A stretch of 27,891 bases of DNA from a bacterium (GTDB lineage: Bacteria > Bacteroidota > Ignavibacteria > UBA10030), in NCBI GenBank assembly GCA_043803945.1, contig JAZDJN010000110.1, forward strand, positions 1-27,891, read 5' to 3'. Position 1 is the stretch's first letter. Every line of letters begins with the position of its first letter. A program made the position numbers and the translations under genes. The notes under the pieces were generated by a model that saw only the letters and a program-made list of their open reading frames with translations, was not told the DNA's origin and ran no database searches. This document shows, one piece after another, positions 5,248 through 19,652 of this stretch.

Positions 5248-7275
5248 TCAATTCAATCCCATCGCTTTAAACGCTGCGTCAATAGGATCGGAATAAATGA
5301 CAAGGCTAAATTTCGAAACCAGATCGGTTGGTACTTTCCCGAGTTGCGACATATCAGAAGCGGGAATAAGCACTTTCTTTGCACCGCTGTCACTTGCTAC
5401 CTGAAGGAATTCACCAAGATTGTCTGATCCGATGATTGCACCGCCAATACTCATAGATCCCAATACAATCATCTGTGAAAGTAAAGAACGCTCAGTGATG
5501 CTCGAAATGATAGAAAGAAACATTGCCAATTCTAATCCTTTGACATTTCCGATACCATTGAGGTCGGTTGCCTTGATGTGAAATTCATATTCATTGAATT
5601 TCGCTACCTGTGTCACACGATTCAGGTTTGACCTTACATAGTTGACGGCTTCCTTGAGTTCTTCTTTTATGGAGGTACCACCACCGAACCCAGTATCACT
5701 CATTTTGCCGTTGCCAGGCATTTTCTGAATATCGAGACGGAATAGTCCTTTGTGCCCCGTATCTGTATTTTGTGCAATCGCATAAACAGTACCAGCAGGT
5801 AGATCTCCTTCTGGAATAAGTGACTTTCCACCGCTCTCAGGTACACCGACGAAATGCTCCTCGTTGTCTGCCAGGTCGATGTAGCTGAAATGGACATCGT
5901 AAAATTCCATGCCGCCAAGCTTCTTCAACTGCTCTTTGATTCTTCGCCTTCCAACAAGTGCATACTCGAGGCATCGCTTTACATCTTCTTTCGAGAACTT
6001 GCCATCGGGGAACAGTAATTTGACAAGACCGCTTACCGTTCGTTTCACTGCAATAGTGTCTCGTTGGTTAAGATCTTTCCCTAGCCGGAAGTGCTGTATT
6101 ATTGCATCAGAGAAATTGTGTTTCCTCAGCTCACGCAGACATTCAGCGAGATAGTCAGAAATAAATCCGAACGCATTGGTGAAAAATTCCGGTCTCATCT
6201 TAGGTACTTCCCAGCCCGGCAGATAATGATGGAACCGGTCAAAGAATGCAGTATCGATCATATCCTGCGGAAATGGTGCCAATAGATGGCTTGTCTTTAC
6301 CATATTCTCGACAGATGAATTTATATTGCCAACAAACACCATGGATGCATCAGCATTGATGCTTTCTTTTCCTCTGCTGAAAGATCCATTCGCCATGAAA
6401 CCTTTCATGATCTGAATGCCGTCTTTGTCCTTTAGATTAATTCCAGCAACTTCATCAAAAGCTACAACATCCCATAAACCAACTAAACCGACGGTACGTG
6501 TACTCATATTATAAAATAGATTCGCGACGGTCGTTTGTCCTCCAGAGATCAATATGGAATAGGGGGATATTTCATCATAGACGTACGATTTTCCTGTTCC
6601 TCTTGGGCCTAATTCGCAGATGTTATAGTTCTTCTCGACAAATGGAATCATGCGTGCAACAAGATGCCACTTCGTATCTTGATCGAGATTCACCGGTTCC
6701 ATGCCGATGCTTCGGCATATTATGTCAATCCATTCATCAAGAGTAAAATTCTGACGTGCGTTAAGATATTCGGAGAGATCCAATCCGGGCATTTGAATCG
6801 GTTTCAAATCGACAATTTTGAACGGTGAATCCTGAGAATTTTCATCAAAATAATACTCGATATTTAGAATGCACCAGATGCCTCCAGCGAGCAGCTTTTC
6901 ATATTTGCGGACGTATGATTCATCAACGATAATATTTCTAATATTTATGTTTGACAGCAATCCTTCGTAACGATCCTGTTTTTCATTCAGCTTGGCGGTC
7001 ACTTTGTCAATTATTTTATAGCGCCCCTTTTCCTTTATTTTCGACTTTACCTTTTCAGCTTCATCCGGTCGAACATAATTTTCGGCAAGAATCTGCTTTA
7101 CCTTCTGAATCCCCTCTTTGATAATAACCTCATCATCTGTTGCACAATACATTCCTAGAAGATATTCGAGAACATACACTGGTACGTTTGCCCCTTCGCG
7201 AATATGTTTGGTGAGATCTTTCCGAACAACTTTGCCCGGAAAGAATTGATTCAGTTTTTGATCTAGTGTATCCAT
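5248..7275 (-). CDS. brxL: BREX Lon-related AAA+ protein BrxL
   Basis: N-terminus FPGKVVRKDLT...NVPVYVLEYLLGMYC, Walker A GPRGTGKS, Walker B VAFDEV, DTAFFDRFH and a Lon-like C-terminal domain. Last gene of the BREX operon. Confidence 0.95.
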   Translation of the reverse strand: MDTLDQKLNQFFPGKVVRKDLTKHIREGANVPVYVLEYLLGMYCATDDEVIIKEGIQKVKQILAENYVRPDEAEKVKSKIKEKGRYKIIDKVTAKLNEKQDRYEGLLSNINIRNIIVDESYVRKYEKLLAGGIWCILNIEYYFDENSQDSPFKIVDLKPIQMPGLDLSEYLNARQNFTLDEWIDIICRSIGMEPVNLDQDTKWHLVARMIPFVEKNYNICELGPRGTGKSYVYDEISPYSILISGGQTTVANLFYNMSTRTVGLVGLWDVVAFDEVAGINLKDKDGIQIMKGFMANGSFSRGKESINADASMVFVGNINSSVENMVKTSHLLAPFPQDMIDTAFFDRFHHYLPGWEVPKMRPEFFTNAFGFISDYLAECLRELRKHNFSDAIIQHFRLGKDLNQRDTIAVKRTVSGLVKLLFPDGKFSKEDVKRCLEYALVGRRRIKEQLKKLGGMEFYDVHFSYIDLADNEEHFVGVPESGGKSLIPEGDLPAGTVYAIAQNTDTGHKGLFRLDIQKMPGNGKMSDTGFGGGTSIKEELKEAVNYVRSNLNRVTQVAKFNEYEFHIKATDLNGIGNVKGLELAMFLSIISSITERSLLSQMIVLGSMSIGGAIIGSDNLGEFLQVASDSGAKKVLIPASDMSQLGKVPTDLVSKFSLVIYSDPIDAAFKAMGLN

Positions 7276-7289
7276 AATGTTTTACCTGC

Positions 7290-9791
7290 TTATTCATCGA
7301 ATTCACTGCTGAATGAGATCAGCATACGATATCTAAATTCTTTGTATGGTCGGAGGAGCGTTGTGCCCTCAATTGGTTCTTCAAGTTTCAAAACGACTTC
7401 CTGATTGTTGTATTGCGTTGCATCGGAAACGAAAAGGAATGTATGTCGCTTTTCTCTGCCCGATGAGTCTTTTTCTGAGCTATCGAAGTTGATGTTTGTA
7501 ACGTCTGAAATAGCTTTTCCACTTTGCGAATAGAATCCTGCCCGTACTTGTCGAGCAAGCATTTTTTCACCAACAGCCTGGCGTTGGTAAAAGCTGATGC
7601 CATACTGATTACTGGTAATGTTTGTTGTTCCACCCAAGATGTCGATCTCAACATATTCAATATCGCTTTTTCGCTTCTTATTCACTTCCAGCACCGGTAA
7701 TACAATTTCCTGCAGACTAGCGCCGCCATGCACATATCGGCTGCCAGCACCCTGAACACGAAGCCGATTGATAGATTTTGGAATCAACACTTCAATGTCA
7801 CCCGACAAACCAAGTTGCTGATCTGTAAAATTCATCACTGTTGGACCACTATTGAGCTGTTTTCCAATGACAAATCTTCTACTACTCTTGAAAATATTTC
7901 CTTCAGGCATAAAGTCATTGAAGTCGCTTTCGTCAAGCCGACTATGCTGATAGAGGAATCCGTGATCAGCCGTAATGATCATGTTCGAACCATTCATGTT
8001 CGCTATCTGCTTGATGATCTTAATCATCATCTTGAATTCATCTTCAACAGCGCCGAATACTTTGTTTTCAGAGCTCTTATCATCTCCAACCTTGTCGATA
8101 CCGTTGTGGAAGATATAAATCACCTGATACGGTTTAATATTCTCCCTGCCAGCGTGTGCGTTCATTGCGAGGAAATCTTCAGAAGATATGGCCAGACTGC
8201 CAGGATGCGCTTTCTGAAGCACTTTGGTGCGACTCTCCATTCCTTTGGTGCTTGATCCATCTGCAAAGACCGTATCGCTTTCTTTATCAAACGAAAGCTC
8301 CTTGTGTGGTAACAACGCTGCCATTCCAAGTTGTGTGAATGACGGAATTACTCCGAGCACAGGATGAAGATCAGCGGTGTATCTATCTTCCTTCAGAATG
8401 ATCTCTCGTAGTTCAACCGCAGTTTCATACCGAAGCGCATCAGAGATGATGACAAATATCCTTTTCCCCTTCTCCACGTATTGCCGAATGTATCTGCTGT
8501 AGAATTCTCTTTGAAACTCGATTCCACCAATCTCCCAATCGCTTTGAGCATCTATTACTCTCTGCCATGAATCCGACAGTGGCAAGAGAAATGAATTGGT
8601 ATAAGCCTTCTCGATCTTTGTCGTTAAGTCTTTTAACAGGTTCTGATGCTCTGCATTCTCGCTGAAGTAAATATATTTCCTGTATAGGAAGTCGATTCTG
8701 AAGTGCTGTTTTGCGTATAGCAAAAAGCCGTCTTTCGCATTATCTGCTTTTAAATCTGCTTTTCGAATTTCATCCAGCAAGAGACTACCATGGCTTAATG
8801 CCTGATACATATTCTCGTAGTTCTTGTAAAAGAATTTCGTCTTGCGTTTATCGATCCATTCCTGAATCGACTGGTTGGACAGGGTTTCTTTCAGTAGATG
8901 GTCGCGTAAGCCGAGTAAAATAGTTTTATCGACTGCATCGAATGTGTTTACATCCAGCAGTTCTTCCGCGTGTAATGTTTGGATCTCACTTTCGATACCT
9001 AGTTCTGCTGCTGCACGATTACTTAATTGCTCGAATACTGTTTGCGATTTTGCATGTTCCTTCCAGCGGTTTACAAAAAGATAGGCATCCTTCGAAAGTG
9101 CCGGTATTCTCTTTGGCAACGCACGGTGATAATTACTTAAGAGAAGTTTTGCTAATAGATCTTTGATGCTTGTTTCGGTTGATGTGTAGCCGAATTTCTT
9201 TTCGAGATGCTCCCAGAAGAATGTGGCAAGTTGAAATCGCTTTATGGTATCGTACTTGATTGTCGCGTTTAGCAGAAGATCTTCAAAGAGAGCAAACAAC
9301 ACTTTGTCCCATTCCGGTTCACAGTCGCATATAACGGATAACATTTTGAGCCGTAATTTTGACTCTCGATCATCCGGCTCCAACAGTGCTTTTAATTTTT
9401 GAATACGATTGGCATCAGTAAAGAATTCTTCATGGTTCTGTATTACTGACTCAAATTCCGGCGGCAACCCGAGCTCCTGTAAATATAGAGAAGAGGGCTT
9501 TGCATGAAATTCATAATAAGCAAGATTCAAATCCAGCAACCAATTTAATGAATCGGCTGGTTTGGGCTTGAGTTGGTAAAGAAGGAATTTTGTATCGGGA
9601 TGTTCCACCAACACCTGATATTTGACGCCGAATTCATTGTTGTTGATAAACACTTTGTGAACATCGACAAACGAGAGGCTTTCAAACAGCTTTTGCATAT
9701 CGGCTTTGTCATCATACCAAAAGATCAGCCGGTGCTGTTGAAAGAGTTTCAGCAGGGCATCTTCAATTTTCTTCTGCACTTCAAACATCAT
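7290..9791 (-). CDS. pglZ: BREX-1 alkaline-phosphatase-fold protein PglZ
   Basis: RLIFWYD N-terminus, ISDALRYE, PSFTQLGMAALLPH, TADHGF and YVHGGASLQEI. 833 aa, positioned before brxL. Confidence 0.95.
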   Translation of the reverse strand: MMFEVQKKIEDALLKLFQQHRLIFWYDDKADMQKLFESLSFVDVHKVFINNNEFGVKYQVLVEHPDTKFLLYQLKPKPADSLNWLLDLNLAYYEFHAKPSSLYLQELGLPPEFESVIQNHEEFFTDANRIQKLKALLEPDDRESKLRLKMLSVICDCEPEWDKVLFALFEDLLLNATIKYDTIKRFQLATFFWEHLEKKFGYTSTETSIKDLLAKLLLSNYHRALPKRIPALSKDAYLFVNRWKEHAKSQTVFEQLSNRAAAELGIESEIQTLHAEELLDVNTFDAVDKTILLGLRDHLLKETLSNQSIQEWIDKRKTKFFYKNYENMYQALSHGSLLLDEIRKADLKADNAKDGFLLYAKQHFRIDFLYRKYIYFSENAEHQNLLKDLTTKIEKAYTNSFLLPLSDSWQRVIDAQSDWEIGGIEFQREFYSRYIRQYVEKGKRIFVIISDALRYETAVELREIILKEDRYTADLHPVLGVIPSFTQLGMAALLPHKELSFDKESDTVFADGSSTKGMESRTKVLQKAHPGSLAISSEDFLAMNAHAGRENIKPYQVIYIFHNGIDKVGDDKSSENKVFGAVEDEFKMMIKIIKQIANMNGSNMIITADHGFLYQHSRLDESDFNDFMPEGNIFKSSRRFVIGKQLNSGPTVMNFTDQQLGLSGDIEVLIPKSINRLRVQGAGSRYVHGGASLQEIVLPVLEVNKKRKSDIEYVEIDILGGTTNITSNQYGISFYQRQAVGEKMLARQVRAGFYSQSGKAISDVTNINFDSSEKDSSGREKRHTFLFVSDATQYNNQEVVLKLEEPIEGTTLLRPYKEFRYRMLISFSSEFDE

Positions 9792-10938
9792 ATTCCTGTC
9801 TGTCCTTTTCGATGAGTTGCTTTAATTCTTCGACGCTTGGCAATTGCACCAAATATTTACTCACAAATACTTCCATTGGTAATCCAGCCGTTGCATACTC
9901 AACAAGCGAATCGTTCTTGTTTGCACAGAGGATGATTCCCACCGGAGGATTATCTCCTTCTGTCATTTCGTTTTTCTTGTAATAGTTTAGATACAAATTC
10001 ATTTGACCTGCATCTGCATGGTCAAATGCTCCGATTTTTAAATCCACAAGAACATGGCACTTCAGAATGCGATGATAAAACACGAGGTCAATGAAGTAGT
10101 GGGTCGTATCGAACGTAATGCGTTTCTGTCTTGCCTCAAAACAAAATCCTCTTCCCAATTCCACTAAGAACTTTTGTAAATGAGTAATGATAGCTTGTTC
10201 AAGATCATTTTCACTGTATTCAGGTTTTTCCTCCAATTCCAGAAATTCCAACACATACGGATTTTTCACAATATCCATCGGGGCAACAACCAACATATCC
10301 TTTGCTTTTGCGATTACCGCTTCTTTATCTGTTGAAAGTCCGGTACGTTCGAACAAAAGCGTATTCATTGCTCTTTTAAGTTCCCGGACACTCCAATTGT
10401 TTTTAATTGCCTGGACTTCATAAAACGCTCTTTTTATTGGGGATTCAGCTTGAATAAGCTCGAGGAAATGCGTAAAGCTGAGACGCGAAATCAGGACTTC
10501 CGCGGGAAATGAGAGATTCGCTGTTTCATCGGTAGACTTCTTCGAGGGAGGCAATACAGCACTTTGCCCTTCGCCCAATTTGGTGTTCAGCGAATTCCAA
10601 ATCTCGCGATACTGATCTTGAAGAAAATGCAATTTGGGGGTCAGTGAACCCCAAATTTGCGGATAGCAATTATAAAATGTCCGACATGAGCGCAATGTCC
10701 GGTCATCAAGCCCTTTTACCCCTTTTTGTTTCAGCGTCGAAGCAACGTTCACCAGCAGTTTTTCCCCATACACCGCTCTGTCTTCTCCTTGCTGTTCGTA
10801 TTCTACCAGATAGCAGCCGATAAGCCAATTACGTATGGTAAGACTTTGATTGACCTGCTGAAGAGCATACCCTTTGGAGTAGGTACATGTGTTTTGTATG
10901 ATCTCGATAAGTTGATTGTATTGCATTGCCATAATCAC
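9781..10938 (-). CDS. DUF1016/YhcG-family PD-(D/E)XK nuclease-domain protein (start may be 10932 or 10926)
   Basis: NWLIGCYLVEYEQ, LSFTHFLEL, NWSVRELKR, KNPYVLEFL, ELGRGFCFEARQKRI, IDLVFYHRILKCHVLVDLK, GQMNLYLNY and NPPVGIILC. Overlaps the pglX stop and the pglZ start. Confidence 0.92.
   Translation of the reverse strand: MIMAMQYNQLIEIIQNTCTYSKGYALQQVNQSLTIRNWLIGCYLVEYEQQGEDRAVYGEKLLVNVASTLKQKGVKGLDDRTLRSCRTFYNCYPQIWGSLTPKLHFLQDQYREIWNSLNTKLGEGQSAVLPPSKKSTDETANLSFPAEVLISRLSFTHFLELIQAESPIKRAFYEVQAIKNNWSVRELKRAMNTLLFERTGLSTDKEAVIAKAKDMLVVAPMDIVKNPYVLEFLELEEKPEYSENDLEQAIITHLQKFLVELGRGFCFEARQKRITFDTTHYFIDLVFYHRILKCHVLVDLKIGAFDHADAGQMNLYLNYYKKNEMTEGDNPPVGIILCANKNDSLVEYATAGLPMEVFVSKYLVQLPSVEELKQLIEKDRQEYDV
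10577..10657. repeat. Two 27-nt imperfect palindromic units, 54 nt apart, inside the DUF1016 gene
   Basis: aatttggtgttcagcgaattccaaatc (10577-10603) and aatttgggggtcagtgaaccccaaatt (10631-10657) encode IWNSLNTKL and IWGSLTPKL. Confidence 0.7.
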
Positions 10939-13900
10939 TCTTCTTCTTTCTCCAATCCCTTGATTGGATAGAGCACTTCTTTGAACTTAATGTAATTCAC
11001 CTTTACACCATCATCGAGGTCAATTTCTATTTTCTTCGCTGCCACTTCATACAATGTCTTCTCGTATGCTTTCAATTCCTTCAACATTAATTCTATATCA
11101 GCGATCTTTTTATCTGCCTGTGTCCGTTCACGTGGGCTGGCGTTTTCACTTATTTTGATTTTAGAGAATGATTGCCTGTTCGCTTCCAGTTTACCGATAA
11201 AAGCGCGAAGATAATCGTTGAGGATCTTTGAAACTATATCTGGGCGGTAGCGGTGCATATAGATGAGAACATTGAATGTTCGTTTGGGTGAGCTGAACAT
11301 CCAATAGATCGGCCGCTTTTTGTAGCGCTTCACATGGTCGTTGTAAAAGTCTTTGACAAAGTATTTGCGGATATCTTTGCCGATGGCATCTTCGATGAAT
11401 TTCAGATTCTCATCGTAATGTTCGGTGCCGAATGTGACTTTAAGAAATTCCTTAAACCGACCAACGATATCGTCTGTAAAATATTCATCTTCAAGTATTG
11501 GGATGATGTTATCTTCATCTGGCATAAACGTCGGTTTAGGGATTTGTTTCAAATAGTCTTGAAGAGTTTCACCTTGATTCGCGAGAATGATGCCAGGCTT
11601 ATCGAGCGAATAGCGACCGAGCATACATCCGACAGCGTAGGAGAAGAATTCTTTCATCGTATCTGCGAGTAACAAGTCCTCTAACTCCTGCTCGGTTTTG
11701 TCGCCACCATAGCGGTAGTACGGGTTGCAGGTAAGGGTGATTTCGGGAAGCGGGACATCTGGTGAAAGCTCATCCTGCAGGCCATAGGCATCTATATAGA
11801 AACGATTGTTCTCCTTTTCTAATCGCTGCATCTCCAATGTCATCTCTTTGCAATTGGCACGAAGTTTAGTATAAGCTGCATTCAGAGTGTATTGATGTTG
11901 AGCAGGATCTAAAATCGAAAGGTGAGCAAATTCCCAAGAGGTTTCGTAAGAGTTCCAGTCTACCTGGGAAAGTCCAATCAACCGATCAATTGCTTTCAAC
12001 GTATTCTGTGAAGAAAAAACTCCGTATGGAATTTTTGCCAGTTCTCCGCTCGTAAAGCTCAATGTTGGACACAGAACACGTAAGAATTCATTTGCCAGAA
12101 CGGAGCAAAAGAGCCCAAGAGTATATCGAAGGCAGACATTATCTTCAGAAAATCCACACCTTCCAGTATCATCAAATAAAAAACCAACTGGACGGCAGCG
12201 AGCAGCGAATTTTCCAGAACTTATCTTTGACCAAGTTATCCCTTCTCTGAAATAATATGATTCATTTCGCACAGCAGATCTTGGTCTCCCATCTTCAAAC
12301 GAGTAATTTCTAATTTCTTGACCATTTTTCCACCAATTTACAACTATGCTATGATTCCCAAACCATTTTCTATATTCGCCACCGCTATGACATGGATACC
12401 ACTTCAAGCCATTGGTCTCTGTCTCTTCTAAAGATTTTGAACTAAGTCCAATTGAATTTTGGGCAACCTCATGCCAGATCCTCTGGAAGACCGTATTGTC
12501 ACCAGTTGACATACCCGCTTTCAATTCAATAATGCCACCTATTGGTTCATTATTAGAGAAACACTCCAAGAATTTTTCACTCACCCAATAAGCAATCGGA
12601 CTGCCAGGTATCTTCACGAACTTGGAAGAGGAGGTACGATAAAACCAACCGCACTTATGATTTCTTATCGCTTCCAATGCTTTCGGAGCTTGAATATCAG
12701 CTCCACGAAAATCAGAAAGTCGGACATACCCCCCCTTGAATCGTGGGTCATGTGAGTTCTGGATGGTGAATGTACAAATGGGGACAGTAGCACCTTCAAA
12801 ACCAGAATACTCAAGTTGGATGAGTGATGTGATGGTTTTTTTTTCAATCAAGAAGTTCCGCAATTCTTCATAAGATGAAATAAACATCCACACGAAGGGT
12901 GTCATAAACCCCAATTGACCTTTATCCATGGCAAGCTCAGTGTTCCTAACAACAAAGGCGGAGAATACGTCTGACTTCACATCAGGATATTTCTCTTGCA
13001 AGAATGATTTGAGTCTATCATTCATCCCCTTACCACCCATGTAAGGGGGATTTGTCACAACAACGTGGTATCGTTTGCTTAAGTATTCTGCCTGCCGGAG
13101 CGCTTTGAGAACGCCTTCAGTCAAGGCACTAAGAAACGCCTCTTGTATATGAGTCTCGTGTAGGGTGATTGCTTCTGCACTTGCCTCTTTCAATTGCACA
13201 GGAGAAAGGCGGGGCTGAACAAGAGAGCCAAAATTATCTGCTTCAGCGAACAAGTTAAGATCGTGTAGAAGGTCATCGCGGCGAATTCCGCCTTTGCATA
13301 ATTCGTCCAGAATCTTCTCCCATCCTTTATCTTCCCACTTCACATTACTGAACAAATCGTTCTTTGAACTTTTTGGATCTCTGGCCGTTGTGAAGTCGAT
13401 CTTCTCTAACACACAAATATTTGGCTGTATTGGCTTTTTGAAGAACCGGCTATACTTTTCTCTGGCAACCATTGTCAAAGCAAATGCTGACAATTCTCCG
13501 GCGCGTTCATCTATCTCGATACCAAACAAGTTTTTCGTCAGAATCTTGTTCGGTATCTCTGTCGGTTCGTATCCCTCTTCTTCGTAGATCAGATACAGCA
13601 ATTCAAAGGCATACACCAACATGTGTGCTGATCCACAGGCGGGGTCACAGAGTTTAATCTCTTCGGGTGAAGAAATGCGTAGGAAATCAGGGGTGAGGGT
13701 ACAGGGATTAGGAGTTAGGGATGAGGAGATAGTTTTTGTCTGAGTGATGAGAGCATTTTGGAGATCTCGGTCAGCAGGGAGAGAATCTGCGCGGATTGTT
13801 CCAGGCTTAAGTACCCCAGCCGTTGCGCAATCATGATTTGCGTTTCCGCTTCCGCTTTGGATCCCTGGGCGATCGAAATGAAGTTCCTGAACTCCGCCGT

Positions 13901-14933
13901 CGATTTCCTTGAATGGCCCTCCGCTATGTTCGATGGAATCGACACCACCGCCCGCCGGAGCTGGCTGGTCAAACCATACAGTTCCTCCTTCGGAAATAGC
14001 TTGGTTGCCCGATAGACCATCTCCACCAATTCCATCGCCTTCTGCCACACGACCAAGTCCTGATAGCTTTTCACTTCCTGCATCTTCAACTCCTTTCTTT
14101 TCTCTAACCACTACGCCCTCGCCCCTATCCCCTACATAAAACTGCATCTTATCAATCAGCTTGGAATTCGGACGGTTCAGCATCCAGAGTCTGCCAAGGG
14201 AATTCTCTACGAGATAGCGCACAATCCAATTCGGTGTAAATAATTGTGTTGCAGCAGGAATGTCCTCTGGCGTTATCTTCTTGTTCTTTGCCAGTCCTTC
14301 GAACACTTCATCCTTCTTTTCTGAAATGTAGAACTGATACATCCAGCCGATAATTTCTACCTGTTTACAATCTTCATCACTCATTCCATCTCGAATATCG
14401 GTGACGATAGAATACTCGCTCAAAAGATCATCGGGGAGAAGCAACTCGGTATAATCAGCAATCCGCTCAAACATAAAGGGCATCGTAGTGTGCCATGCAT
14501 TGCAGGATGCCACAAGGAGTATTTTATATGCTTCGGTCTGCGCATCAGCAACAGAAGTACGACTATCCAGCAGATCATTCAGACGCTTTCGGTCTAATGT
14601 GAGCACGTCATCTATATGCCCTGCTTTAGCCTCCTGCAGTAGCTCCGGTATTGTGCTGCCTGCTGCAGGTGTCACAATCTTCGGAACAGTGTAACCATTG
14701 GCATCCATAAACCGGAATGCCATCAAACGGTTAAACCACGTGTAAGCAACACGCTCGATTACTTGTTCTTTGCCATATTTCGCAATTTCCAGCTTCAGCT
14801 TGTTCACCTGCTCTCGTTTACCACGCAGTTCGGCGGTATCGTGCGACAGCACATACTCCAGCTTCCTGCCGACCAGATCGAGCAGTTTTACACGGGCTTC
14901 GCGAGCGAACTTCTTGAGTGTGTTGGTATTCAT
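10935..14933 (-). CDS. pglX: BREX-1 adenine methyltransferase PglX with a 148-codon in-frame insertion
   Basis: Likely start MNTNTLKKFAREAR (ATG 14933, AGGA upstream). Motifs VAYTWFNRL, IPAATQLFTPNWIVRYLVENSLGRLW, motif I DPACGSAH, motif IV TNPPYMG, YKKRPIYW and IDLDDGVKVNY. A foreign segment lies at 13689-14132. Confidence 0.95.
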   Translation of the reverse strand: MNTNTLKKFAREARVKLLDLVGRKLEYVLSHDTAELRGKREQVNKLKLEIAKYGKEQVIERVAYTWFNRLMAFRFMDANGYTVPKIVTPAAGSTIPELLQEAKAGHIDDVLTLDRKRLNDLLDSRTSVADAQTEAYKILLVASCNAWHTTMPFMFERIADYTELLLPDDLLSEYSIVTDIRDGMSDEDCKQVEIIGWMYQFYISEKKDEVFEGLAKNKKITPEDIPAATQLFTPNWIVRYLVENSLGRLWMLNRPNSKLIDKMQFYVGDRGEGVVVREKKGVEDAGSEKLSGLGRVAEGDGIGGDGLSGNQAISEGGTVWFDQPAPAGGGVDSIEHSGGPFKEIDGGVQELHFDRPGIQSGSGNANHDCATAGVLKPGTIRADSLPADRDLQNALITQTKTISSSLTPNPCTLTPDFLRISSPEEIKLCDPACGSAHMLVYAFELLYLIYEEEGYEPTEIPNKILTKNLFGIEIDERAGELSAFALTMVAREKYSRFFKKPIQPNICVLEKIDFTTARDPKSSKNDLFSNVKWEDKGWEKILDELCKGGIRRDDLLHDLNLFAEADNFGSLVQPRLSPVQLKEASAEAITLHETHIQEAFLSALTEGVLKALRQAEYLSKRYHVVVTNPPYMGGKGMNDRLKSFLQEKYPDVKSDVFSAFVVRNTELAMDKGQLGFMTPFVWMFISSYEELRNFLIEKKTITSLIQLEYSGFEGATVPICTFTIQNSHDPRFKGGYVRLSDFRGADIQAPKALEAIRNHKCGWFYRTSSSKFVKIPGSPIAYWVSEKFLECFSNNEPIGGIIELKAGMSTGDNTVFQRIWHEVAQNSIGLSSKSLEETETNGLKWYPCHSGGEYRKWFGNHSIVVNWWKNGQEIRNYSFEDGRPRSAVRNESYYFREGITWSKISSGKFAARCRPVGFLFDDTGRCGFSEDNVCLRYTLGLFCSVLANEFLRVLCPTLSFTSGELAKIPYGVFSSQNTLKAIDRLIGLSQVDWNSYETSWEFAHLSILDPAQHQYTLNAAYTKLRANCKEMTLEMQRLEKENNRFYIDAYGLQDELSPDVPLPEITLTCNPYYRYGGDKTEQELEDLLLADTMKEFFSYAVGCMLGRYSLDKPGIILANQGETLQDYLKQIPKPTFMPDEDNIIPILEDEYFTDDIVGRFKEFLKVTFGTEHYDENLKFIEDAIGKDIRKYFVKDFYNDHVKRYKKRPIYWMFSSPKRTFNVLIYMHRYRPDIVSKILNDYLRAFIGKLEANRQSFSKIKISENASPRERTQADKKIADIELMLKELKAYEKTLYEVAAKKIEIDLDDGVKVNYIKFKEVLYPIKGLEKEEE
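13687..13728. repeat. 3' arm (mRNA sense) of heptamer repeats flanking the nested gene
   Basis: Six imperfect 7-mers on the + strand: tcagggg tgagggt acaggga ttaggag ttaggga tgaggag. Confidence 0.8.
13715..14083 (-). CDS. Four helix bundle protein (23S rRNA IVP / Avd-like family), nested out of frame within pglX
   Basis: MQEVKSYQDLVVWQKAMELVEMVYRATKLFPKEELYGLTSQLRRAVVSIPSNIAEG...EFRNFISIAQGSKAEAETQ carries the family signatures FPxxExYGLTSQxRRA and SIPSNIAEG. RBS AAGGAG (14090-14095) is 6 nt before the ATG, and the TAA is at 13715-13717. Confidence 0.93.
   Translation of the reverse strand: MQEVKSYQDLVVWQKAMELVEMVYRATKLFPKEELYGLTSQLRRAVVSIPSNIAEGHSRKSTAEFRNFISIAQGSKAEAETQIMIAQRLGYLSLEQSAQILSLLTEISKMLSSLRQKLSPHP
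14101..14135. repeat. 5' arm (mRNA sense) of heptamer repeats, inverted relative to 13687-13728
   Basis: Five imperfect 7-mers on the - strand: gtagggg atagggg cgagggc gtagtgg ttagaga. Confidence 0.8.
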
Positions 14934-14957
14934 TGTTCCTGGTTCTGTGGAATATGC

Positions 14958-15052
14958 ACATGTCCACGCCTTGGACCTATATTCATAACGTGTCCAAACA
15001 GGTGACAAATATGGACACGTGTGTTGGAACGTGTCCATGATGTGGACACGTT
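14958..15052. repeat. Cluster of three REP-like hairpins between fic and pglX
   Basis: acatgtcca..tggacctat (14958-14980, imperfect), acgtgtcca..tggacacgt (14988-15020, 9 bp) and aacgtgtcca..tggacacgtt (15028-15052, 10 bp, overlapping the fic stop). Confidence 0.85.
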
Positions 15053-16139
15053 ATTTTGTGAGCAAAGCATAGAGTTTTTTGTTCAAATAGAGATTTTCCT
15101 TGCCCACTTTTTGTTTTTTAAGAATACCAGCTTCTTCTAATGCTTTCAGATACACCGCAGCAGTTTTACGCTCTGCAAGACCGGCATCGACAAGGAATTG
15201 CCCTTTTGTATAGGGCTGCTGGAAAATCAATTCGATCAATTCTTTTGAATAGACTTTTGCAGGAAGTGTTTTCTTTGCCGATTCGAGTGTCTCCTGCAAC
15301 AGTGATCGGATATTCACAATACGCTTCGAGGTCATCGCAGCAGTCGATTCAACTGCATCAAGCATGAACAAGACCCAAGGCTCCCAGCTATTCTTCTCCG
15401 TTACTGCACGCAGTAATCGGTAGTAATCACCTTTATGTTCAATAATATATTTGCTCAGATATAACACAGGAAGGGTGAGAAGACCTTCTTTTACAAGGAA
15501 GAGAATGTTGATAATTCTTCCAGTCCTGCCATTTCCATCAAAGAAAGGATGAATTGCTTCGAACTGATAATGAATCAGGGCAAGCTTCACGAGAGGGTCA
15601 AATTGATTCTCCGAGTGAATGAAGATTTCCATGTCTTTCAGTTTTTGTCGAATCAATGCTTCTCCCTCGGGTGGCGTATAAATTACTTTTCCTGTATGTT
15701 TGTCTCCGACTGCAGTCCCGGGTAAGTTACGAATGCCCGCACTGTTTTCTTTTATTGTCTGGACCAGCGAAACGAAAAGATTCGTCGTCAAGAGAGGTTT
15801 CTTCTTTAACGTATTGAATCCCGTCCACAATGCCTCTCTGTACCGGAGTACTTCTTTTGTCGTTGGATCGATATTGGTCGTATCAGCCGTGATCGCCCGA
15901 AATAGTGCATCATGAGTGGTGATTATATTTTCTATCTCAGAACTTGCTTGTGCTTCCTGAAGAACGACAGTATTAACAAGCATCGATTGATTTGGGATTG
16001 TTTCACCCAATCCCTTAAGTTCTGCGAGGGATCTCCCAGCGGAGATAGCTTTTTTCAATACTGCATTTGTTTCTATTTCGTTCTTTGGGGGCAGAGATGG
16101 CAAGTCATTGTATGGTATAAGTGGATTAAAGATTGTCAT
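15051..16139 (-). CDS. Fic family protein (class II-type AMPylase with N-terminal inhibitory helix and C-terminal wHTH-like region)
   Basis: Catalytic motif HPFFDGNGRTGR and inhibitory motif SSEIEN. Lies between brxC and pglX. Confidence 0.93.
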   Translation of the reverse strand: MTIFNPLIPYNDLPSLPPKNEIETNAVLKKAISAGRSLAELKGLGETIPNQSMLVNTVVLQEAQASSEIENIITTHDALFRAITADTTNIDPTTKEVLRYREALWTGFNTLKKKPLLTTNLFVSLVQTIKENSAGIRNLPGTAVGDKHTGKVIYTPPEGEALIRQKLKDMEIFIHSENQFDPLVKLALIHYQFEAIHPFFDGNGRTGRIINILFLVKEGLLTLPVLYLSKYIIEHKGDYYRLLRAVTEKNSWEPWVLFMLDAVESTAAMTSKRIVNIRSLLQETLESAKKTLPAKVYSKELIELIFQQPYTKGQFLVDAGLAERKTAAVYLKALEEAGILKKQKVGKENLYLNKKLYALLTK

Positions 16140-16152
16140 GCAAGTTCTTTCT

Positions 16153-19100
16153 CTATAGGGAAATTCGTTTATCCTCTTTAATCAATTTAAGATATGCTTC
16201 TTTCAAGGCTTGCACATACTCTTCAACATCCCGTTCTGTTTCCAACGACGGTTTTGCAAACTTCACTTTTACAGAATCTTTGCGAACGTACGCCACCTTC
16301 GTATACTGAACACCAGTTCCTGTTTGTGTTGCACCGGTCGAAGCAGGCACTGCTAAGCGCATCATCAGATCAATTTGTCTGTGGTACAGATCGTCTTGAG
16401 CAAAACTCTTCTTTGCACGCAGATTACCGATGAATCGTTCGTGATTGACTTCCTCGATAGACTCAATAAACGGTTGCAGCACTTCTGCCTGTTGAGATGG
16501 GGATAGCTTCTTGAACTCTTCATACGACTTCAACTTCTCTATCGTCTCTTTAACTATCTGAACGCTTTCAATTCGCTCTTTGTCAATCTTTGTTTTCACT
16601 TCACCACGCAGGGTATCAAGTGCTTGCTTGCCAGTCTGGATTAGATTGCCTTTGTAAGGAACAATACTCTCTTTCACAGCAGTCAACGGCTCTATTCCAG
16701 CCTTATCGATATAGTTGAAATTCGCATTCTCGCTATCCAGGTAGGATAGAATGTTTTCGTAGATATCCTTTTGCGGTCCCTTCATGAATTTCTTGATACC
16801 GTCGATAATGCTTTCCTTGTCAACTAACAATTCTTCACCGAATTGATCGAGAGCATTGAAGAAATAGGGATGTTCTTTCTCGCTAACCAATCTTAATCTA
16901 TTCAACGCCTCGCCGAGCGAATTGAGAAACGCATAACGTTCGCGCTGTGAGTATATATCCGCGACATCACCGACCTCGACCGTAATGCGCTGTTTAAAAT
17001 ATTTCGATACTTCCTTTGGTTCATTCCCCAGATTCGCTTCGTTGAAGTATTCCTGATGGAAGTCCTTCAGTTTCTTCAGTTTCGAGGTACTGATATCTTC
17101 TTCCACATCGATGATCGTATTTGGATATTCACGATTGCTCTGCAATGCTTCCAGCACTGCCCTGTCATTGAGCGTATTGCCATCCAATTTTAGACTGACC
17201 TTGTTCCGTTTATAGAGCTTTGCAATGAGGCACAGAACCGCCATCTGGTACCAACCATATGGTCTCGCAGCAAATGTCTCTATAAGCACCTTGATCGTCG
17301 TCCGTTCATGATTCGCCTTATTGCGTGTGATTCTATTTAAGACTTCCAGTTCCACTTCAGACAGCGTGTCTTTAAATAACACGTCGTCCTGGCTCCAGAT
17401 GATTTTCTTTATATGATCTTCCGTGAACTCAACAGTCAGCATTTTCAGATTTGTGTAGGTCGTCCTTATCAATTGCTGAACGCCTGCATGTATCTTTATC
17501 CGAGGATCCTTGGAAGAGATGTCAACTACCTCAGAGCCATTGAGATACATCTTAGCATCGCCGATAAGATCTTTCAGCCGTCCCATCACATTTCGTTTTC
17601 TTATTGTGTTGTATTCTTTCTTCTCTGTCAGTATGTTTATCTTTGACGGATCAAGATTTTGGGAATAGGTCGTTTGGTAATATTTCTCAGTCTTTATGAC
17701 AAGTCTTAATTCATCAAACAAACGTGGATCTTGGGGAAGATGAACAACAAGGTCGGTATTTCCGAATGATTTAAGAGAAACGTTTGCAGTTGCGATTTCG
17801 TTTTGATTTAGCGGCGTAATGAAATTCACATAGAAATCGCGTTCTTTACTGACAATGTTATCATCAATTTTTCTGCCGTACTCATAAATTTGATTATTGG
17901 AATCGAGTTTTACTTTGCTGTCACGAAGTATTTCCGTAAATATCATTTCGGAAAGGAGATTGCCCGGTGCTTTTGGATCAATATCCGTGCTTTTTATTTC
18001 GTTCTCTACATCCTTCTCTTGATTCGTTAAATACTCGTACGTATCGCCAACCCTTTGGATAAATGTCTGAGTCTCCAATAGATTGAGCGCTTCCTGAATA
18101 CTCTTTTGGAAGGAAACGAGATCAACTTCGAATGACGGGAAGAGCAGAATAGCAATATTGTTCAGAGAAGCCTTGAATTCTTTTATATACTTCACAAGGA
18201 ACAATGCCTTCAAAACTTCGACAGCTAAGGGATTAGTGATGTTTCGTTCGCCCTCCAGGACATCCGTCTGAATATTACTTTGAAGAATATCTCGAATACC
18301 ATCGAACATCTGAGCGTAATGCACGATCTCGCTCATATCCTTTTGTGCGTTTTGTTTTGCCACCTGCTGGAAGACCCCGAGCATCGATCTCTCACCCACA
18401 GATTGGTGTTTCCCCATAAACGCATTATGAACAGACAATGCTTTTATCGAGGCTTGAAAAAGTTCAAATTGATATGGTATGAAAGGATATGTCAATTGGA
18501 AATGTTCTTCATTTTTGTAGACACCATACTGTCTTGAATTATCGCCGAATTCAAAGAGTGTCCTGAAGTTGTTTTTTTCTTTTTCAAATATACCAGACAA
18601 CAGCTTTGCAGATGGTTCATTCTTTGCAAGTAATCGCTTTTGTATTACTTCATCAGCATTGGAGCTTGTAAGAGGCAGCTTGATCGAGAACCGTGCTTGA
18701 ATACGGGAGAAGTCGTGCGCTTGTTGTTTTGCCAATTCACCAATGGTGGCATTCAGGTCATTCTGCGATGTAACGATCATGAATGCCTGGCCTTTACACG
18801 AACTTGATAATGTCTCTGCTAACGTTTGGAGACTCAGCATCAAACGAACATCTTCTGCAATAAATTGTCCCACTTCATCCACACAGAAAATAAGCCTGAA
18901 TCCAGCCGGTTGTTTCGCAATAAAGCTTTTCACCAGAGTTACAAAACCTGCAATATCCAATTTATAACTATTGCGTAAATCGTTGAAATTCTTCTTCGCT
19001 TCTTCCTCGGTTATTTTGTTGAGTTCCGCGAATGCCTTTGCGAATTCACTTTGATTAAGCAGAATGTGTCTTCGCCCCGTGTACCACTCTTTCTTGTTTA

Positions 19101-19650
19101 GTTTTAAGTAGATCTCTTTGAACTGATCGTACTGCCCCGCATCATCAATATGCCGCTCTATCTCTGCTACAGCAGGGGCTTGTCCATAATAACCTTGGTA
19201 CTCATTGAAGACTTTTAAAAAGACCGCAAGGATCGGATCCACTGAAGTAAGATTGCCGATACCGTCAGCTTTTTGCGCTATGTTAAATAAGAGCGTCTTT
19301 GCAGGGATTTTCAAAGATTTCTTAATGTTCGCATTGAGTTCAAAATCGTTTTGAATTTTCTCAGCGAACATTTCGCCGCACGTCGTACCATCCAGTGATC
19401 GGTTCTCCAAGACAAGTGACAACATTTTCAATAAATGGGATTTTCCGGAGCCGAAGAAACCAGATATCCAGATACTGTCGTTATATCCCTTTTTTACATA
19501 TTCCTGAAAGAATGATCCGAGATGCTTTTCGATCTCTTTCGTCACAACATATTCGTCAACTTCCTGAAGGAGATATTCTTCATCGTCCGCTTTGATAACA
19601 CCTTCGATGTGGCGAGAGATGTCTTTGAGATACAGGTCTTGTTGTTTCAT
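16153..19650 (-). CDS. brxC: BREX P-loop ATPase BrxC
   Basis: IEGVIKAD, EVDEYVVT, Walker A WISGFFGSGKSH, Walker B VDEVGQFI, VTSQ, SRIQARF, EVIQKRLL, YPFIPYQF and RPYGW. 1165 aa. Confidence 0.95.
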   Translation of the reverse strand: MKQQDLYLKDISRHIEGVIKADDEEYLLQEVDEYVVTKEIEKHLGSFFQEYVKKGYNDSIWISGFFGSGKSHLLKMLSLVLENRSLDGTTCGEMFAEKIQNDFELNANIKKSLKIPAKTLLFNIAQKADGIGNLTSVDPILAVFLKVFNEYQGYYGQAPAVAEIERHIDDAGQYDQFKEIYLKLNKKEWYTGRRHILLNQSEFAKAFAELNKITEEEAKKNFNDLRNSYKLDIAGFVTLVKSFIAKQPAGFRLIFCVDEVGQFIAEDVRLMLSLQTLAETLSSSCKGQAFMIVTSQNDLNATIGELAKQQAHDFSRIQARFSIKLPLTSSNADEVIQKRLLAKNEPSAKLLSGIFEKEKNNFRTLFEFGDNSRQYGVYKNEEHFQLTYPFIPYQFELFQASIKALSVHNAFMGKHQSVGERSMLGVFQQVAKQNAQKDMSEIVHYAQMFDGIRDILQSNIQTDVLEGERNITNPLAVEVLKALFLVKYIKEFKASLNNIAILLFPSFEVDLVSFQKSIQEALNLLETQTFIQRVGDTYEYLTNQEKDVENEIKSTDIDPKAPGNLLSEMIFTEILRDSKVKLDSNNQIYEYGRKIDDNIVSKERDFYVNFITPLNQNEIATANVSLKSFGNTDLVVHLPQDPRLFDELRLVIKTEKYYQTTYSQNLDPSKINILTEKKEYNTIRKRNVMGRLKDLIGDAKMYLNGSEVVDISSKDPRIKIHAGVQQLIRTTYTNLKMLTVEFTEDHIKKIIWSQDDVLFKDTLSEVELEVLNRITRNKANHERTTIKVLIETFAARPYGWYQMAVLCLIAKLYKRNKVSLKLDGNTLNDRAVLEALQSNREYPNTIIDVEEDISTSKLKKLKDFHQEYFNEANLGNEPKEVSKYFKQRITVEVGDVADIYSQRERYAFLNSLGEALNRLRLVSEKEHPYFFNALDQFGEELLVDKESIIDGIKKFMKGPQKDIYENILSYLDSENANFNYIDKAGIEPLTAVKESIVPYKGNLIQTGKQALDTLRGEVKTKIDKERIESVQIVKETIEKLKSYEEFKKLSPSQQAEVLQPFIESIEEVNHERFIGNLRAKKSFAQDDLYHRQIDLMMRLAVPASTGATQTGTGVQYTKVAYVRKDSVKVKFAKPSLETERDVEEYVQALKEAYLKLIKEDKRISL

Positions 19651-19652
19651 AG

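Follow-up and report, generated by a model that had tools for sequence, protein, structure and literature searches.

The pglX gene described here raises two questions: how a methyltransferase gene of a phage-defence locus can hold a second, complete gene on the same strand while its own frame stays open, and what kind of element the second gene belongs to. The window, by which we mean the whole stretch of 27,891 nucleotides analysed, is a bacterial contig (Ignavibacteria, UBA10030; GCA_043803945.1, JAZDJN010000110.1). Within it, a small hairpin-armed type of cassette known from rRNA genes lies inside a phage-defence methyltransferase gene. The host frame runs stop-free through the nested cassette, and by database counts of open frames this arrangement is found again in hundreds of other large genes. 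We found no prior description of such nested cassettes in the literature. The explanation we favor, and consider likely, is that the insert belongs to the 23S rRNA intervening-sequence (IVS) type of cassette and persists within genes by letting translation run through it.

The pglX gene and its insert

The pglX ORF (minus strand, 10935 to 15038; 1367 codons) encodes a BREX-1 adenine methyltransferase. Its true start is probably M36 (14933), with whose equivalent the starts of homologues align, giving a product of ~1332 aa. The product, P0001, matches the BREX_1_MTaseX family NF033452 at 1381 bits (cut-off 500) in two stretches. The second stretch (aa 450 to 1354) corresponds to profile positions 300 to 1209 of 1210, and because it begins at position 300 the insert falls between two matched parts of the family. 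The family match, motif I, motif IV (NPPY) and the BREX-1 neighbors together identify the protein as a BREX-1 PglX. The locus (5248 to 20875, all on the minus strand) contains brxL (5248 to 7275), pglZ of type A (7290 to 9791), an ORF of no assigned family between pglZ and pglX (9781 to 10938), a Fic gene (15051 to 16139), brxC (16153 to 19650) and two small ORFs (19653 to 20875); brxL, pglZ and brxC were assigned by family matches.

The insert occupies 13689 to 14132 on the minus strand, between ...KMQFYV and DFLRISSPEE... of PglX (P0001 aa 303 to 450). Its 444 nt, or 148 stop-free codons of the host frame, bear out what the initial annotation had counted. The site is 12 residues upstream of SAM-binding motif I, and the DPACGSAHM codons of that motif (13641 to 13667, minus strand) start seven codons past the end of the insert. 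In Salmonella PglX, the GxG of motif I is placed at residues 315 to 317 in the portion of PMC11341690 drawn on here. The insert is richer in GC than its flanks (0.50–0.54 versus 0.41–0.47), as had been proposed, but the ~55% originally given is a peak value. Neither a promoter-like nor a terminator-like site was found in the cassette, nor a transposase, integrase or reverse transcriptase gene, and no Rfam family, intron, ribozyme or rRNA reached its gathering score between 13400 and 14400 (best 19 bits, against 45).

In the host frame the insert encodes a Gly/Ser-rich peptide running from GDRGEG to CTLTP, with D as the next residue. AlphaFold assigns model residues 270 to 416 (aa 305 to 451) a pLDDT of ~21–25 without secondary structure, whereas the flanks score 85–95 (model pTM 0.74), and the insert is thus predicted to form a disordered loop in PglX. 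In the +1 frame of the same strand, an ORF spanning 13715 to 14089 contains a gene of 122 aa plus stop (13715 to 14083, minus strand), whose ATG at 14083 is preceded, six nucleotides ahead, by the Shine-Dalgarno-like AAGGAG (14090 to 14095, minus strand). The intact gene and its ribosome-binding site had been recognized from the start. The family proposed for it was also correct: the protein matches PF05635 (23S_rRNA_IVP; 141.6 bits, cut-off 33.8, E 1.3e-41), TIGR02436 (133 bits, cut-off 24, E 4.7e-39) and NF008911 (151.5 bits, cut-off 137). We therefore call it the IVP gene; from family membership, its product would be a four-helix bundle. A structure of the Xanthomonas family member, S23p, has been solved (cited in PMC4990558, in the part of that article used here).

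It could be argued that pglX is dead or dying and that its open frame is a leftover. Motif I reads GSA here and GSG in the 8 other nested hosts in which it is recognizable, so the activity of P0001 is not assured. With this query, 60 related genomes from the same family or order yielded no BREX, one of them showing no more than a weak partial match (31% identity over aa 185 to 490); this suggests recent acquisition. In addition, the protein-database gene caller split the gene (P0038, 953 aa). Against this, the full-length frame is open, the PglX profile is covered nearly to its last position, the remaining BREX-1 genes are all intact with full-length family matches, GSA also occurs in another insert-bearing PglX (P0146), and the arrangement is kept in many diverged homologues. 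We regard a dying gene as very improbable; full-length PglX is presumably made and active.

Empty sites, recurrence and the frame rule

Homologues without the insert define its empty site. The PglX homologues P0004, P0019, P0060 and P0064 have a linker of ~7–8 residues in place of the insert; P0004 is 79% identical over its best local alignment (37% of the query region). In PDB 8c45 the first aligned block stops at chain residue 282 and the second starts at 303, and the insert is likewise missing from 8zek and 9ewz, with the alignment continuing on either side in all three chains. The short linker before motif I that the initial annotation had expected is therefore real. A host of the PF01555 type also has empty-site homologues (G212, G177).

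We examined 116 IVP gene copies for which DNA was available, 17 nested in long same-strand ORFs and 99 free-standing. No alignable segment of ~150 aa lacking the nested gene was encountered: every segment with DNA overlaps a +1-frame IVP homologue, which is intact in 15 of 17 cases. The host frame is the −1 frame of the IVP gene in all 17 nested copies, and the +1 frame is open across the IVP gene in none of the 116. None of the free copies sits between two halves of a known host. They average 7.1 stops in the host-equivalent frame, and only two are stop-free, both at or near a contig end with an open −1 frame that reaches the end on one side only.

The open host frame shows in codon choice. 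Among nested copies, T stands at none of the 472 third positions before AA/AG/GA codons, where it would create a stop, versus 279 of 1517 third positions before other codons (18.4%); in free copies the figure is 702 of 3070 (22.9%). The chance of a single copy being stop-free is ~0.0035, and probabilities pooled over the 17 overstate independence because these copies share ancestry. In the IVP frame, differences at codon positions 1, 2 and 3 are 0.36, 0.25 and 0.58, and mean amino acid identity is 0.59 in the IVP frame against 0.31 in the host frame. As judged from these sequence patterns, both frames are under selection, the host frame to stay stop-free and the IVP by purifying selection. In two nested copies (L098, L154) the IVP frame is internally stopped and the host frame is still open.

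These observations bear on a second alternative, that the insert is removed or bypassed, by RNase III excision and ligation or by ribosomes hopping over a stem, so that PglX of normal length results. The predicted fold described below would let the arms bring both junctions together. If the insert were removed, however, an open frame would be needless, and yet stop-creating T is avoided throughout and all nested copies are open in one and the same frame. The Rfam search described above gave no intron or ribozyme, and the junctions of the sequences displayed lack the conserved Cys/Ser/Thr or His-Asn of protein splicing. The same kind of element is cut out of 23S rRNA by RNase III, but that excision occurs without subsequent ligation, both according to the part of PMC4990558 consulted. 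We judge removal to be quite unlikely. Of the two options offered in the initial annotation, a disordered loop tolerated by PglX thus seems favored, because the frame is stop-free under selection and the predicted pLDDT is ~22 across the insert, and removal at the level of RNA or translation appears disfavored because it would need no open frame.

A third alternative, an assembly or chimera artefact, might be suspected since the source of the window is a draft of 118 contigs. The cassette, its frame and its site are nevertheless shared by independent assemblies (G332, G438 and the metagenome loci L101, L102 and L106), and the cassette is seen in dozens of database proteins, so an artefact is scarcely credible.

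Terminal arms, hosts and probable movement

The cassette ends in two arms of degenerate heptamer repeats, a G-rich 5' arm (14102 to 14135, minus strand) and a C-rich 3' arm (13679 to 13714, minus strand) that starts directly after the IVP stop codon. The earlier description of the gene as hairpin-bracketed holds in part. The minimum-free-energy RNA fold pairs the 5' arm (~14135–14102) with the 3' arm (~13714–13679), the duplex having −64.6 kcal/mol (z = −3.3, 30 shuffles). At the DNA level the arms of the pglX copy are 72–79% complementary, but their inverted-repeat score of 9.5 is below 13, the 95th percentile of cross-element controls, and the fold of the whole 501 nt is not unusual (z = −1.03). 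Complementarity of an element's own arms exceeds that percentile in 77 of 111 elements. Mismatch counts show no strand asymmetry between G-U and A-C (free copies, 181 versus 155; nested copies, 30 versus 47), and pairing at the RNA level is for that reason not demonstrated by them; the arms may nonetheless form a duplex in the transcript and may serve as an RNase III target.

Nested hosts are DNA methyltransferases in 17 of 17 cases, of the PglX/MmeI type or the type-III-like PF01555 type, with at least four distinct insertion sites. Among the best 120 PglX homologues, a ranking that favored carriers at the site of the pglX insert (site 1), the host-frame peptide occurs at site 1 in 22, at a C-terminal site in 33, at both in 5 and at an unassigned site in 1, and is absent from 59. 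A profile of the 17 host-frame peptides matches 730 representative proteins when E ≤ 1e-3 is required and 317 when E ≤ 1e-10 is, counts that detect open host frames only; the matched clusters are mostly defence methyltransferases. Hosts other than methyltransferases occur too, among them sensor kinases, a protein kinase and a DNA pol III alpha.

The IVP tree is poorly resolved, and no more than one change of state is forced by its starred branches. In it, L095 and L101 have their site-1 and site-2 copies together in one clade (support 95), and the IVP of the MmeI-type host L154 clusters with those of PF01555 hosts. An AU test, run after the tree was seen, rejects a single nested clade (p = 0.030). 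The cassette is polymorphic among close PglX homologues, and it would have been duplicated from site to site within one gene and moved between unrelated methyltransferase families; it behaves as a selfish, occasionally mobile passenger. The initial proposal of a compact element that enters a gene without inactivating it, keeping the frame open, gains strong support from the empty sites, the recurrence at this and other sites of many methyltransferase genes, and the context-specific avoidance of stop-creating bases.

A fourth alternative is that the cassette has been domesticated as a regulator of BREX. Several versions can be conceived. First, RNase III could cut the arm stem, lowering PglX output. 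Second, either the transcript or the PglX complex could be a binding target of the IVP protein. Third, the 7-nt repeats of the arms could slip, shifting the pglX frame on and off in a phase-variable manner, one version of the switch suggested in the initial annotation. The hosts with DNA are without exception defence methyltransferases, classic phase-variable genes, and 102 representative proteins include 25 of the Eco57I type, 14 N6_N4_Mtase and 3 DUF1156; heptamers make up the arms, and 7 is not divisible by 3; in nested copies, purifying selection acts on the IVP; and the stems of 23S IVSs are RNase III substrates (PMC4990558, in the part used here). Conversely, the arms of nested copies are degenerate: perfect period-7 repetition over at least 21 nt is present in 1 of the 17 nested versus 28 of the 94 free copies (Fisher p = 0.04), which looks like selection against slippage and leaves that version weakly disfavored on sequence grounds. 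Moreover, the IVP gene is lost from two nested copies with the host frame nonetheless open, some hosts are not methyltransferases, and the cassette is dispensable in many close PglX homologues that function without it, such as the solved Salmonella and E. coli proteins. On balance a regulatory role seems unlikely, if less so than the other alternatives.

In the preferred reading, an IVS-type cassette that is translated through, the cassette sits in a variable surface linker of PglX, where it replaces ~8 linker residues, and would be transcribed as part of pglX. Ribosomes translating pglX would read through it in the IVP −1 frame, which has been purged of stop codons, giving full-length PglX with a Gly/Ser-rich, disordered loop of ~148 aa. 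The IVP protein would be made separately, in the +1 frame, from its own AAGGAG and ATG.

Relation to known systems

Several known systems resemble the pglX cassette in part. First, phase-variable methyltransferases (phasevarions) also carry simple repeats inside a defence methyltransferase ORF, and in Streptomyces Pgl a G-tract makes pglX phase-variable. The repeats here are degenerate, unlike the perfect tracts of phasevarions, and no length polymorphism was observed. Second, inteins and group I and II introns are likewise selfish insertions that leave the host functional, often beside catalytic motifs. An intein carries Hint-domain blocks, has a nucleophile at its N-junction and ends with His-Asn and a further nucleophile at its C-junction; the termini given above lack such motifs and no Hint-type Pfam was found in P0001, and we rejected an intein. 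In contrast to inteins and introns, the cassette shows no evident splicing chemistry and no Rfam intron match, and its stop-free host frame speaks for retention of the insert in the protein. Third, Rickettsia palindromic elements (RPEs) are palindromic selfish DNA lying in frame inside protein-coding genes and translated as an extra surface segment. The cassette likewise has an in-frame, stop-free state under selection, and would likewise be translated with its host. RPEs are ~100–150 bp, are not known to carry a gene and are known only from Rickettsia. The cassette, unlike them, has its own conserved gene in an overlapping frame, which makes its DNA dual-coding, and is found across many assemblies and metagenomes; the two have no sequence relationship. 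Fourth, the DGR accessory protein Avd (bAvd) is distantly related to the nested protein, but the matches to PF22296 (E 1.5e-7, 32.3 bits, cut-off 40) and NF033474 (E 2e-6, 28.1 bits, cut-off 80) are under the curated cut-offs and no reverse transcriptase was found among the 10 neighboring ORFs scanned with NCBIfam; identity with Avd was rejected.

The closest parallel is the 23S rRNA IVS of Coxiella, Leptospira, Brucella and Xanthomonas, with which the cassette shares the protein family PF05635. Location separates them, since IVSs lie in helix 9, 25 or 45 of 23S rRNA and the cassette lies inside pglX, with no rRNA match; the arms of the cassette are also degenerate heptamer repeats, unlike those of 23S IVSs. 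Both have a terminal stem, which in the pglX copy appears in the RNA fold and duplex, with the DNA-level score below the control threshold. According to the part of PMC4990558 drawn on here, the Coxiella IVS is 428–444 nt long, similar to the cassette, and in both elements the termini are complementary, enclose the ORF in a long stem and take the place of a short dispensable loop in the host molecule. The host is an rRNA in one case and a gene that encodes a protein in the other: 23S IVSs are excised by RNase III, leaving a fragmented but functional rRNA, whereas the pglX cassette would be accommodated by translation through a stop-free alternative frame.

A gene nested in pglX and the linker it replaces

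The pglX ORF (10935-15038, minus strand) encodes 1367 residues (protein P0001), which the BREX-1 PglX model matches with 1381 bits in two stretches, the second covering residues 450-1354 from profile position 300 of 1210. Its neighbors are BrxL, PglZ type A, an unknown ORF, a Fic protein, and BrxC. Within pglX lies a 444-nt insert (14132-13689, minus strand), which adds 148 stop-free codons between ...KMQFYV and DFLRISSPEE... and has a GC fraction of 0.50-0.54, versus 0.41-0.47 in the adjoining sequence. The same strand, shifted by +1 relative to pglX, carries a 122-aa ORF (ATG at 14083, end at 13715) preceded by AAGGAG six bases upstream of its ATG. The product matches PF05635 (23S_rRNA_IVP; E 1.3e-41) and TIGR02436 (E 4.7e-39); its matches to the Avd family fall below their cut-offs. 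The arrangement proposed in the initial annotation, an open PglX frame with an intact shifted gene and its AAGGAG, is thus borne out.

The locus has several further features. Homologues begin at a methionine (MNTNTLKKFA...) that in the pglX ORF is preceded by 35 further codons (14934-15038, minus strand), and the true start is probably at 14933. Motif I (13641-13667, minus strand) reads DPACGSAHM, so that the second Gly of the GxG SAM-binding motif is Ala. This GSA variant also occurs in one other insert-bearing PglX, P0146; all eight other nested hosts in which the motif pattern matched have GSG, and the pattern had no match in the host at locus L154. A Fic-type adenylyltransferase gene (15051-16139, minus strand; NF046030, 492.6 bits, just under the cut-off of 550) lies between brxC and pglX, and a 385-aa ORF without an NCBIfam match (9781-10938, minus strand) overlaps pglX and pglZ at their ends. 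In the database this pglX is represented by P0038, which has only 953 aa; the gene caller evidently split the gene around the nested one, and insert-bearing methyltransferases are therefore likely to be under-counted or mis-sized in databases. The same genome holds five further IVP homologues (L002-L006, on contigs C65, C62, C104, and C87) at 36-42% identity, all free-standing, two of them 1.8 kb apart on C65 and one with an internal stop. Rfam at gathering score gave no family match around them.

A homologue search with residues 180-600 of P0001 recovered two kinds of PglX, one of ~1150-1200 aa that aligns to a flank only and one of ~1310-1525 aa that aligns across the insert at 50-61% identity. 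In the best local alignment of P0004, a member of the flank-only class, identity reaches 79%. At the insert position P0004, P0019, P0060, and P0064 have a linker of 7-8 residues, and the solved PglX 8c45 aligns to chain residue 282 and resumes at 303, as do 8zek and 9ewz in like manner. In Salmonella PglX the GxG of motif I occupies residues 315-317 (PMC11341690). Thus, the insert stands in place of a short, variable linker that directly precedes the SAM-binding strand, and the short linker that the initial annotation ascribed to PglX homologues is found in both alignments and structures, with empty and filled sites recovered together. For a second type of host, the PF01555 protein at locus L097, the position of the cassette is taken by a 13-residue loop in homologues of 70-85% identity from genomes G212 and G177. 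The filled-versus-empty comparisons gave no clean target-site duplication; a short variable linker is replaced instead. An AlphaFold2 model of residues 36-780, built from a 25-row alignment, has confident flanks (blocks mostly 85-95, pTM 0.74) and a featureless stretch at model residues 270-416 (P0001 305-451) with pLDDT ~21-25, a prediction that fits a normal methyltransferase domain bearing a disordered loop.

Among 60 related genomes, a single one matched pglX at E <= 1e-20, weakly and over part of its length; close kin thus offer no orthologous empty site. A scan of genome contigs found 57 pglX loci with best-segment identities of 30-71%, six of them whole-gene loci at 50-55%; most of the 57 look empty-site as judged from match length only, and they are too distant for a base-level junction. 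Among public sequencing runs, none of RNA was found to contain the stretch and none of any kind covered half of it, the best shares being 0.05-0.06. Four public DNA contig sets compared with the window yielded fragments only, short ones from the pglX flanks of relatives and a few of 35 nt from within the IVP gene, and none of them bridged the insert. Two loose ends by the insert boundaries run on into sequence whose translation resembles an empty-site linker; they come from other organisms at 85-90% likeness and are not counted as evidence.

Recurrence, hosts, and arms of the cassette

Insert-bearing homologues have a similar host-frame peptide at this first site, before motif I (site 1), and several (P0003, P0007, P0010, P0019, P0023, and P0033) have a second such peptide near the C terminus (site 2). 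Among the best 120 PglX matches, whose ranking favored site-1 carriers, a host-frame profile assigned 59 to no insert, 22 to site 1 only, 33 to the C-terminal site only, and 5 to both, with 1 left unassigned. Median lengths were 1172 aa without an insert, 1318 with site 1 filled, 1341 with the C-terminal site filled, and 1470 with both. The length classes of PglX (~1170, 1320, and 1470 aa) correspond to none, one, or two cassettes.

For the DNA, the IVP protein was searched against 401 genomes of the window's phylum (220 matched, and the best 30 loci were kept), and seven nested IVP proteins were aligned for a scan of metagenomes, which gave 80 loci. These scans, the paralogues in the window's own genome, and the window itself yielded 116 IVP copies from hits of at least 96 residues. 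We call a copy nested if a long same-strand ORF extends at least 150 nt past both its ends. Seventeen of the 116 are nested: that of the window; two in a single 1479-aa PglX of G332; one each in G438, G202, G042, G164, and G080; and nine in eight metagenome loci. Every one of the 17 has its host frame at minus one relative to the IVP frame, and in none of the 116 does a +1 frame span the IVP gene. A long antisense frame (237 codons) occurs at one of the 116, L143, which has 60% GC; it was judged to be chance. The main inference of the initial annotation, that a compact intervening element enters a gene without inactivating it, is supported.

The hosts of all 17 nested copies are DNA methyltransferases. 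PglX or other Eco57I/MmeI-type proteins are the hosts in the window and at L095, L096, L101, L102, L106, L107, L099, and L154, and, on a weaker basis, at L143 (a weak match) and L113 (PADLOC PglX models). PF01555 proteins of ~1020-1120 aa are the hosts at L097, L098, L100, and L128; the ORF adjoining the L097 and L098 hosts is helicase/Res-like as judged by eye. Insertions occur at four sites or more: directly ahead of motif I, past the helix next to motif I on its C-terminal side (L107), at the C-terminal site of PglX, and in a C-terminal loop of PF01555 proteins. Free-standing IVP cassettes also lie directly upstream of the start of a pglX-like gene at L140 (3598-3924) and L108 (532-891), so that the association with BREX/methyltransferase loci is not confined to nested copies. 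Four PglX homologues (P0014, P0016, P0018, and P0007) have short in-frame inserts that resemble the arm repeats described below and lack an IVP gene. In these, Trp-containing Gly/Ser/Glu/Lys repeats are paired with Thr/Ser-His-Pro-Leu repeats, and in P0014 two arm-like stretches surround a native segment of ~40 residues.

Several observations bear on movement of the cassette. Site 1 is filled and site 2 empty in P0014, and the reverse holds in P0019. In a tree of 116 IVP proteins, the copies at both sites of L095 and L101 fall into a single clade (support 95) that is split by site, which implies that one site was filled by duplication of the copy at the other. The IVP at L154, whose host is MmeI-type, clusters with IVPs from PF01555 hosts. 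On the best tree the nested state changes seven times, of which well-supported branches force only one, and an AU test, run after the tree had been inspected, rejects a single nested clade (p = 0.030). The cassette encodes no recognizable recombinase.

The initial annotation also described the nested gene as bracketed by a hairpin. For the window copy this is the weakest part of the description. In its predicted RNA fold, a G-rich arm on the 5' side is paired with a C-rich one on the 3' side (duplex z = -3.3); as DNA the arms are degenerate, and the whole-insert fold is not unusual (z = -1.03). Free-standing IVP genes are likewise flanked by inverted arrays of 7-nt repeats. In the examples compared, the heptamer unit varies between elements and the arms are complementary within each. 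The complementarity score of an element's own arms has a median of 16, versus 7 for arms paired across elements (95th percentile 13), and 77 of 111 elements (10/17 nested, 67/94 free) exceed that percentile. Arm alignments show no strand bias, G-U-compatible versus A-C mismatches numbering 181 versus 155 in free copies and 30 versus 47 in nested ones, and so favor neither RNA nor DNA as the level at which pairing matters. Perfect period-7 tracts of at least 21 nt occur in the arms of 1 of 17 nested and 28 of 94 free copies (Fisher p = 0.04), as expected if 7-nt slippage, which would shift the host frame, is selected against. At L154 (~3890-3995), the upstream arm seems to hold an extra local hairpin of the same heptamers before the IVP start.

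Selection on the two frames

A stop in the host frame arises when an IVP codon ending in T precedes one starting with AA, AG, or GA, which gives ~28 positions at risk per copy. In nested copies T is found at none of 472 such third positions, versus 279 of 1517 third positions elsewhere in the same genes (18.4%); in the 99 free copies it occupies 702 of 3070 risk positions (22.9%). At 18.4% T, a copy would be stop-free by chance at a rate of ~0.35%. Free copies have a mean of 7.1 stops in the -1 frame. Only two, L121 and L141, have none; both lie at or near a contig end that the frame reaches on one side, and they could be nested copies as well. Stops in the +1 frame are as common in nested copies as in free ones (10.7 and 8.6). 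Third positions are near saturation among nested copies, at 0.58 differences per site, so there was plenty of time for stops to arise in these lineages. Moreover, the IVP frame has an internal stop at L098 and L154 and the host frame is intact, so that the constraint on the host frame is independent of a live IVP gene. These data indicate that selection keeps the host frame open, as had been suspected.

The two frames are not constrained alike. Differences between nested copies at IVP codon positions 1, 2, and 3 are 0.36, 0.25, and 0.58, and identity is about twofold higher in the IVP frame (0.59) than in the host frame (0.31). This codon structure, together with the higher IVP identity, indicates purifying selection on the IVP protein. 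The host-frame peptide is constrained mainly against stops; it is 28% Gly plus Ser in nested copies, versus 16% in the same frame of free copies.

Some caution applies to these comparisons. The contrast of zero stops in 17/17 nested versus 2/99 free copies is partly circular, as nesting is defined through the open frame, and our case for selection on that frame rests on the third-position test, the continuity of host domains, and a search for broken hosts. In this last, frame-independent test, the flanks of the 99 free copies were compared with a panel of host proteins, and no copy lay between two halves of a panel host. Nested copies are mutually related, so pooled probabilities overstate their independence; the pattern nonetheless holds from host to host and from site to site.

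Breadth, mechanism, and relation to known elements

A search with the insert alone as a single protein gave just three matches at database-wide E-values, and a profile of the 17 host-frame peptides was used instead. Against 1.84 billion representative proteins, this profile, which sees open host frames only, gave 730 matches at E <= 1e-3 and 317 at E <= 1e-10. In 89 of the 150 best matches, the insert is flanked on each side by 60 or more host residues. A Pfam scan of the 102 proteins of at least 330 aa among these 150 matched Eco57I in 25, N6_N4_Mtase in 14, DUF1156 in 3, histidine-kinase or response-regulator domains in about 5, and a protein kinase, DNA polymerase III alpha, nSTAND1 (STAND NTPase), and DUF3516 in one each; many of the 102 had no Pfam match. 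Carriers that are not methyltransferases, such as sensor kinases, include P0183. The type III methyltransferase model was matched by 16 of 77 proteins. A count of 55 of 77 matches to the PADLOC PglX model PDLC02522 was set aside as inflated, since that model is matched by the insert alone, over profile positions 282-413 (E 3.4e-20 for the window's peptide, down to 2.7e-09 for that of a PF01555 host). Passenger sequence has therefore been built into a published defense profile, which can produce false PglX calls on unrelated hosts. The cassette is evidently common enough to have been included there unnoticed.

How does a host gene survive the cassette? The best-supported mechanism, judged from the frames, is that ribosomes would translate through it in the stop-purged host frame. 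PglX would thereby gain an extra flexible loop, and the same transcript would also express the IVP gene in its overlapping frame. For the window's own PglX, the GSA variant of motif I is a caveat. Removal of the insert from the RNA, or its bypass by the ribosome, would instead give PglX of normal length, and both had been raised initially; given the frame evidence, these routes are disfavored, as neither would seem to call for a purged frame. An Rfam scan of the insert region gave no family match, and a promoter/terminator scan found no sites there, although the organism's promoter type may fall outside that scan's coverage. A regulatory or switch role for the cassette is possible but unsupported.

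Translation through the cassette leads to a broader proposal, which we favor with modest confidence. IVS-type cassettes, in which inverted heptamer-repeat arms enclose an S23p/IVP gene, may constitute a large, unrecognized class of selfish gene-within-gene elements, of which a lineage-spanning subset has evolved a stop-free -1 frame. This subset would colonize protein-coding genes, be translated through as a harmless flexible loop, and make a protein of its own in the frame that overlaps. The hosts it prefers would be defense DNA methyltransferases (BREX PglX, type IIG/L, type III Mod, and DISARM-like), with sensor kinases and DNA polymerase III alpha as others. If so, the cassette offers a third route, besides inteins and self-splicing introns, by which a mobile gene can reside inside a gene without killing its host. 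The finding connects the very common, functionally unexplained S23p/IVP family with a concrete lifestyle. It is also a clear natural case of long-range dual coding under measurable selection, in which ~120 codons are maintained in one frame for a protein and in the other mainly against stops. The bias toward defense methyltransferases is striking and may point to a link between the cassette and restriction/BREX biology. In practical terms, gene callers split or mis-size such methyltransferases, as with the 953 aa assigned to the window's protein, and the cassette shows where PglX and type III Mod proteins have loops that are permissive for insertion.

The literature listings searched contain no account of IVP cassettes that lie within protein-coding genes. 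The closest known elements are the ORF-bearing intervening sequences of 23S rRNA. That of Coxiella, of 428-444 nt with a 28-bp terminal stem and an S23p ORF, replaces a small dispensable loop and is cut out by RNase III without religation (PMC4990558). This layout is common to the pglX cassette; the rRNA elements differ in the host molecule and in the means by which the host is spared. Next closest are the Rickettsia palindromic elements, which lie in-frame in genes and so use the same trick as the cassette, but carry no gene of their own. S23p/IVP proteins were already known from rRNA intervening sequences; here they belong to a hairpin-armed cassette that is usually intergenic and is able to live inside ORFs.
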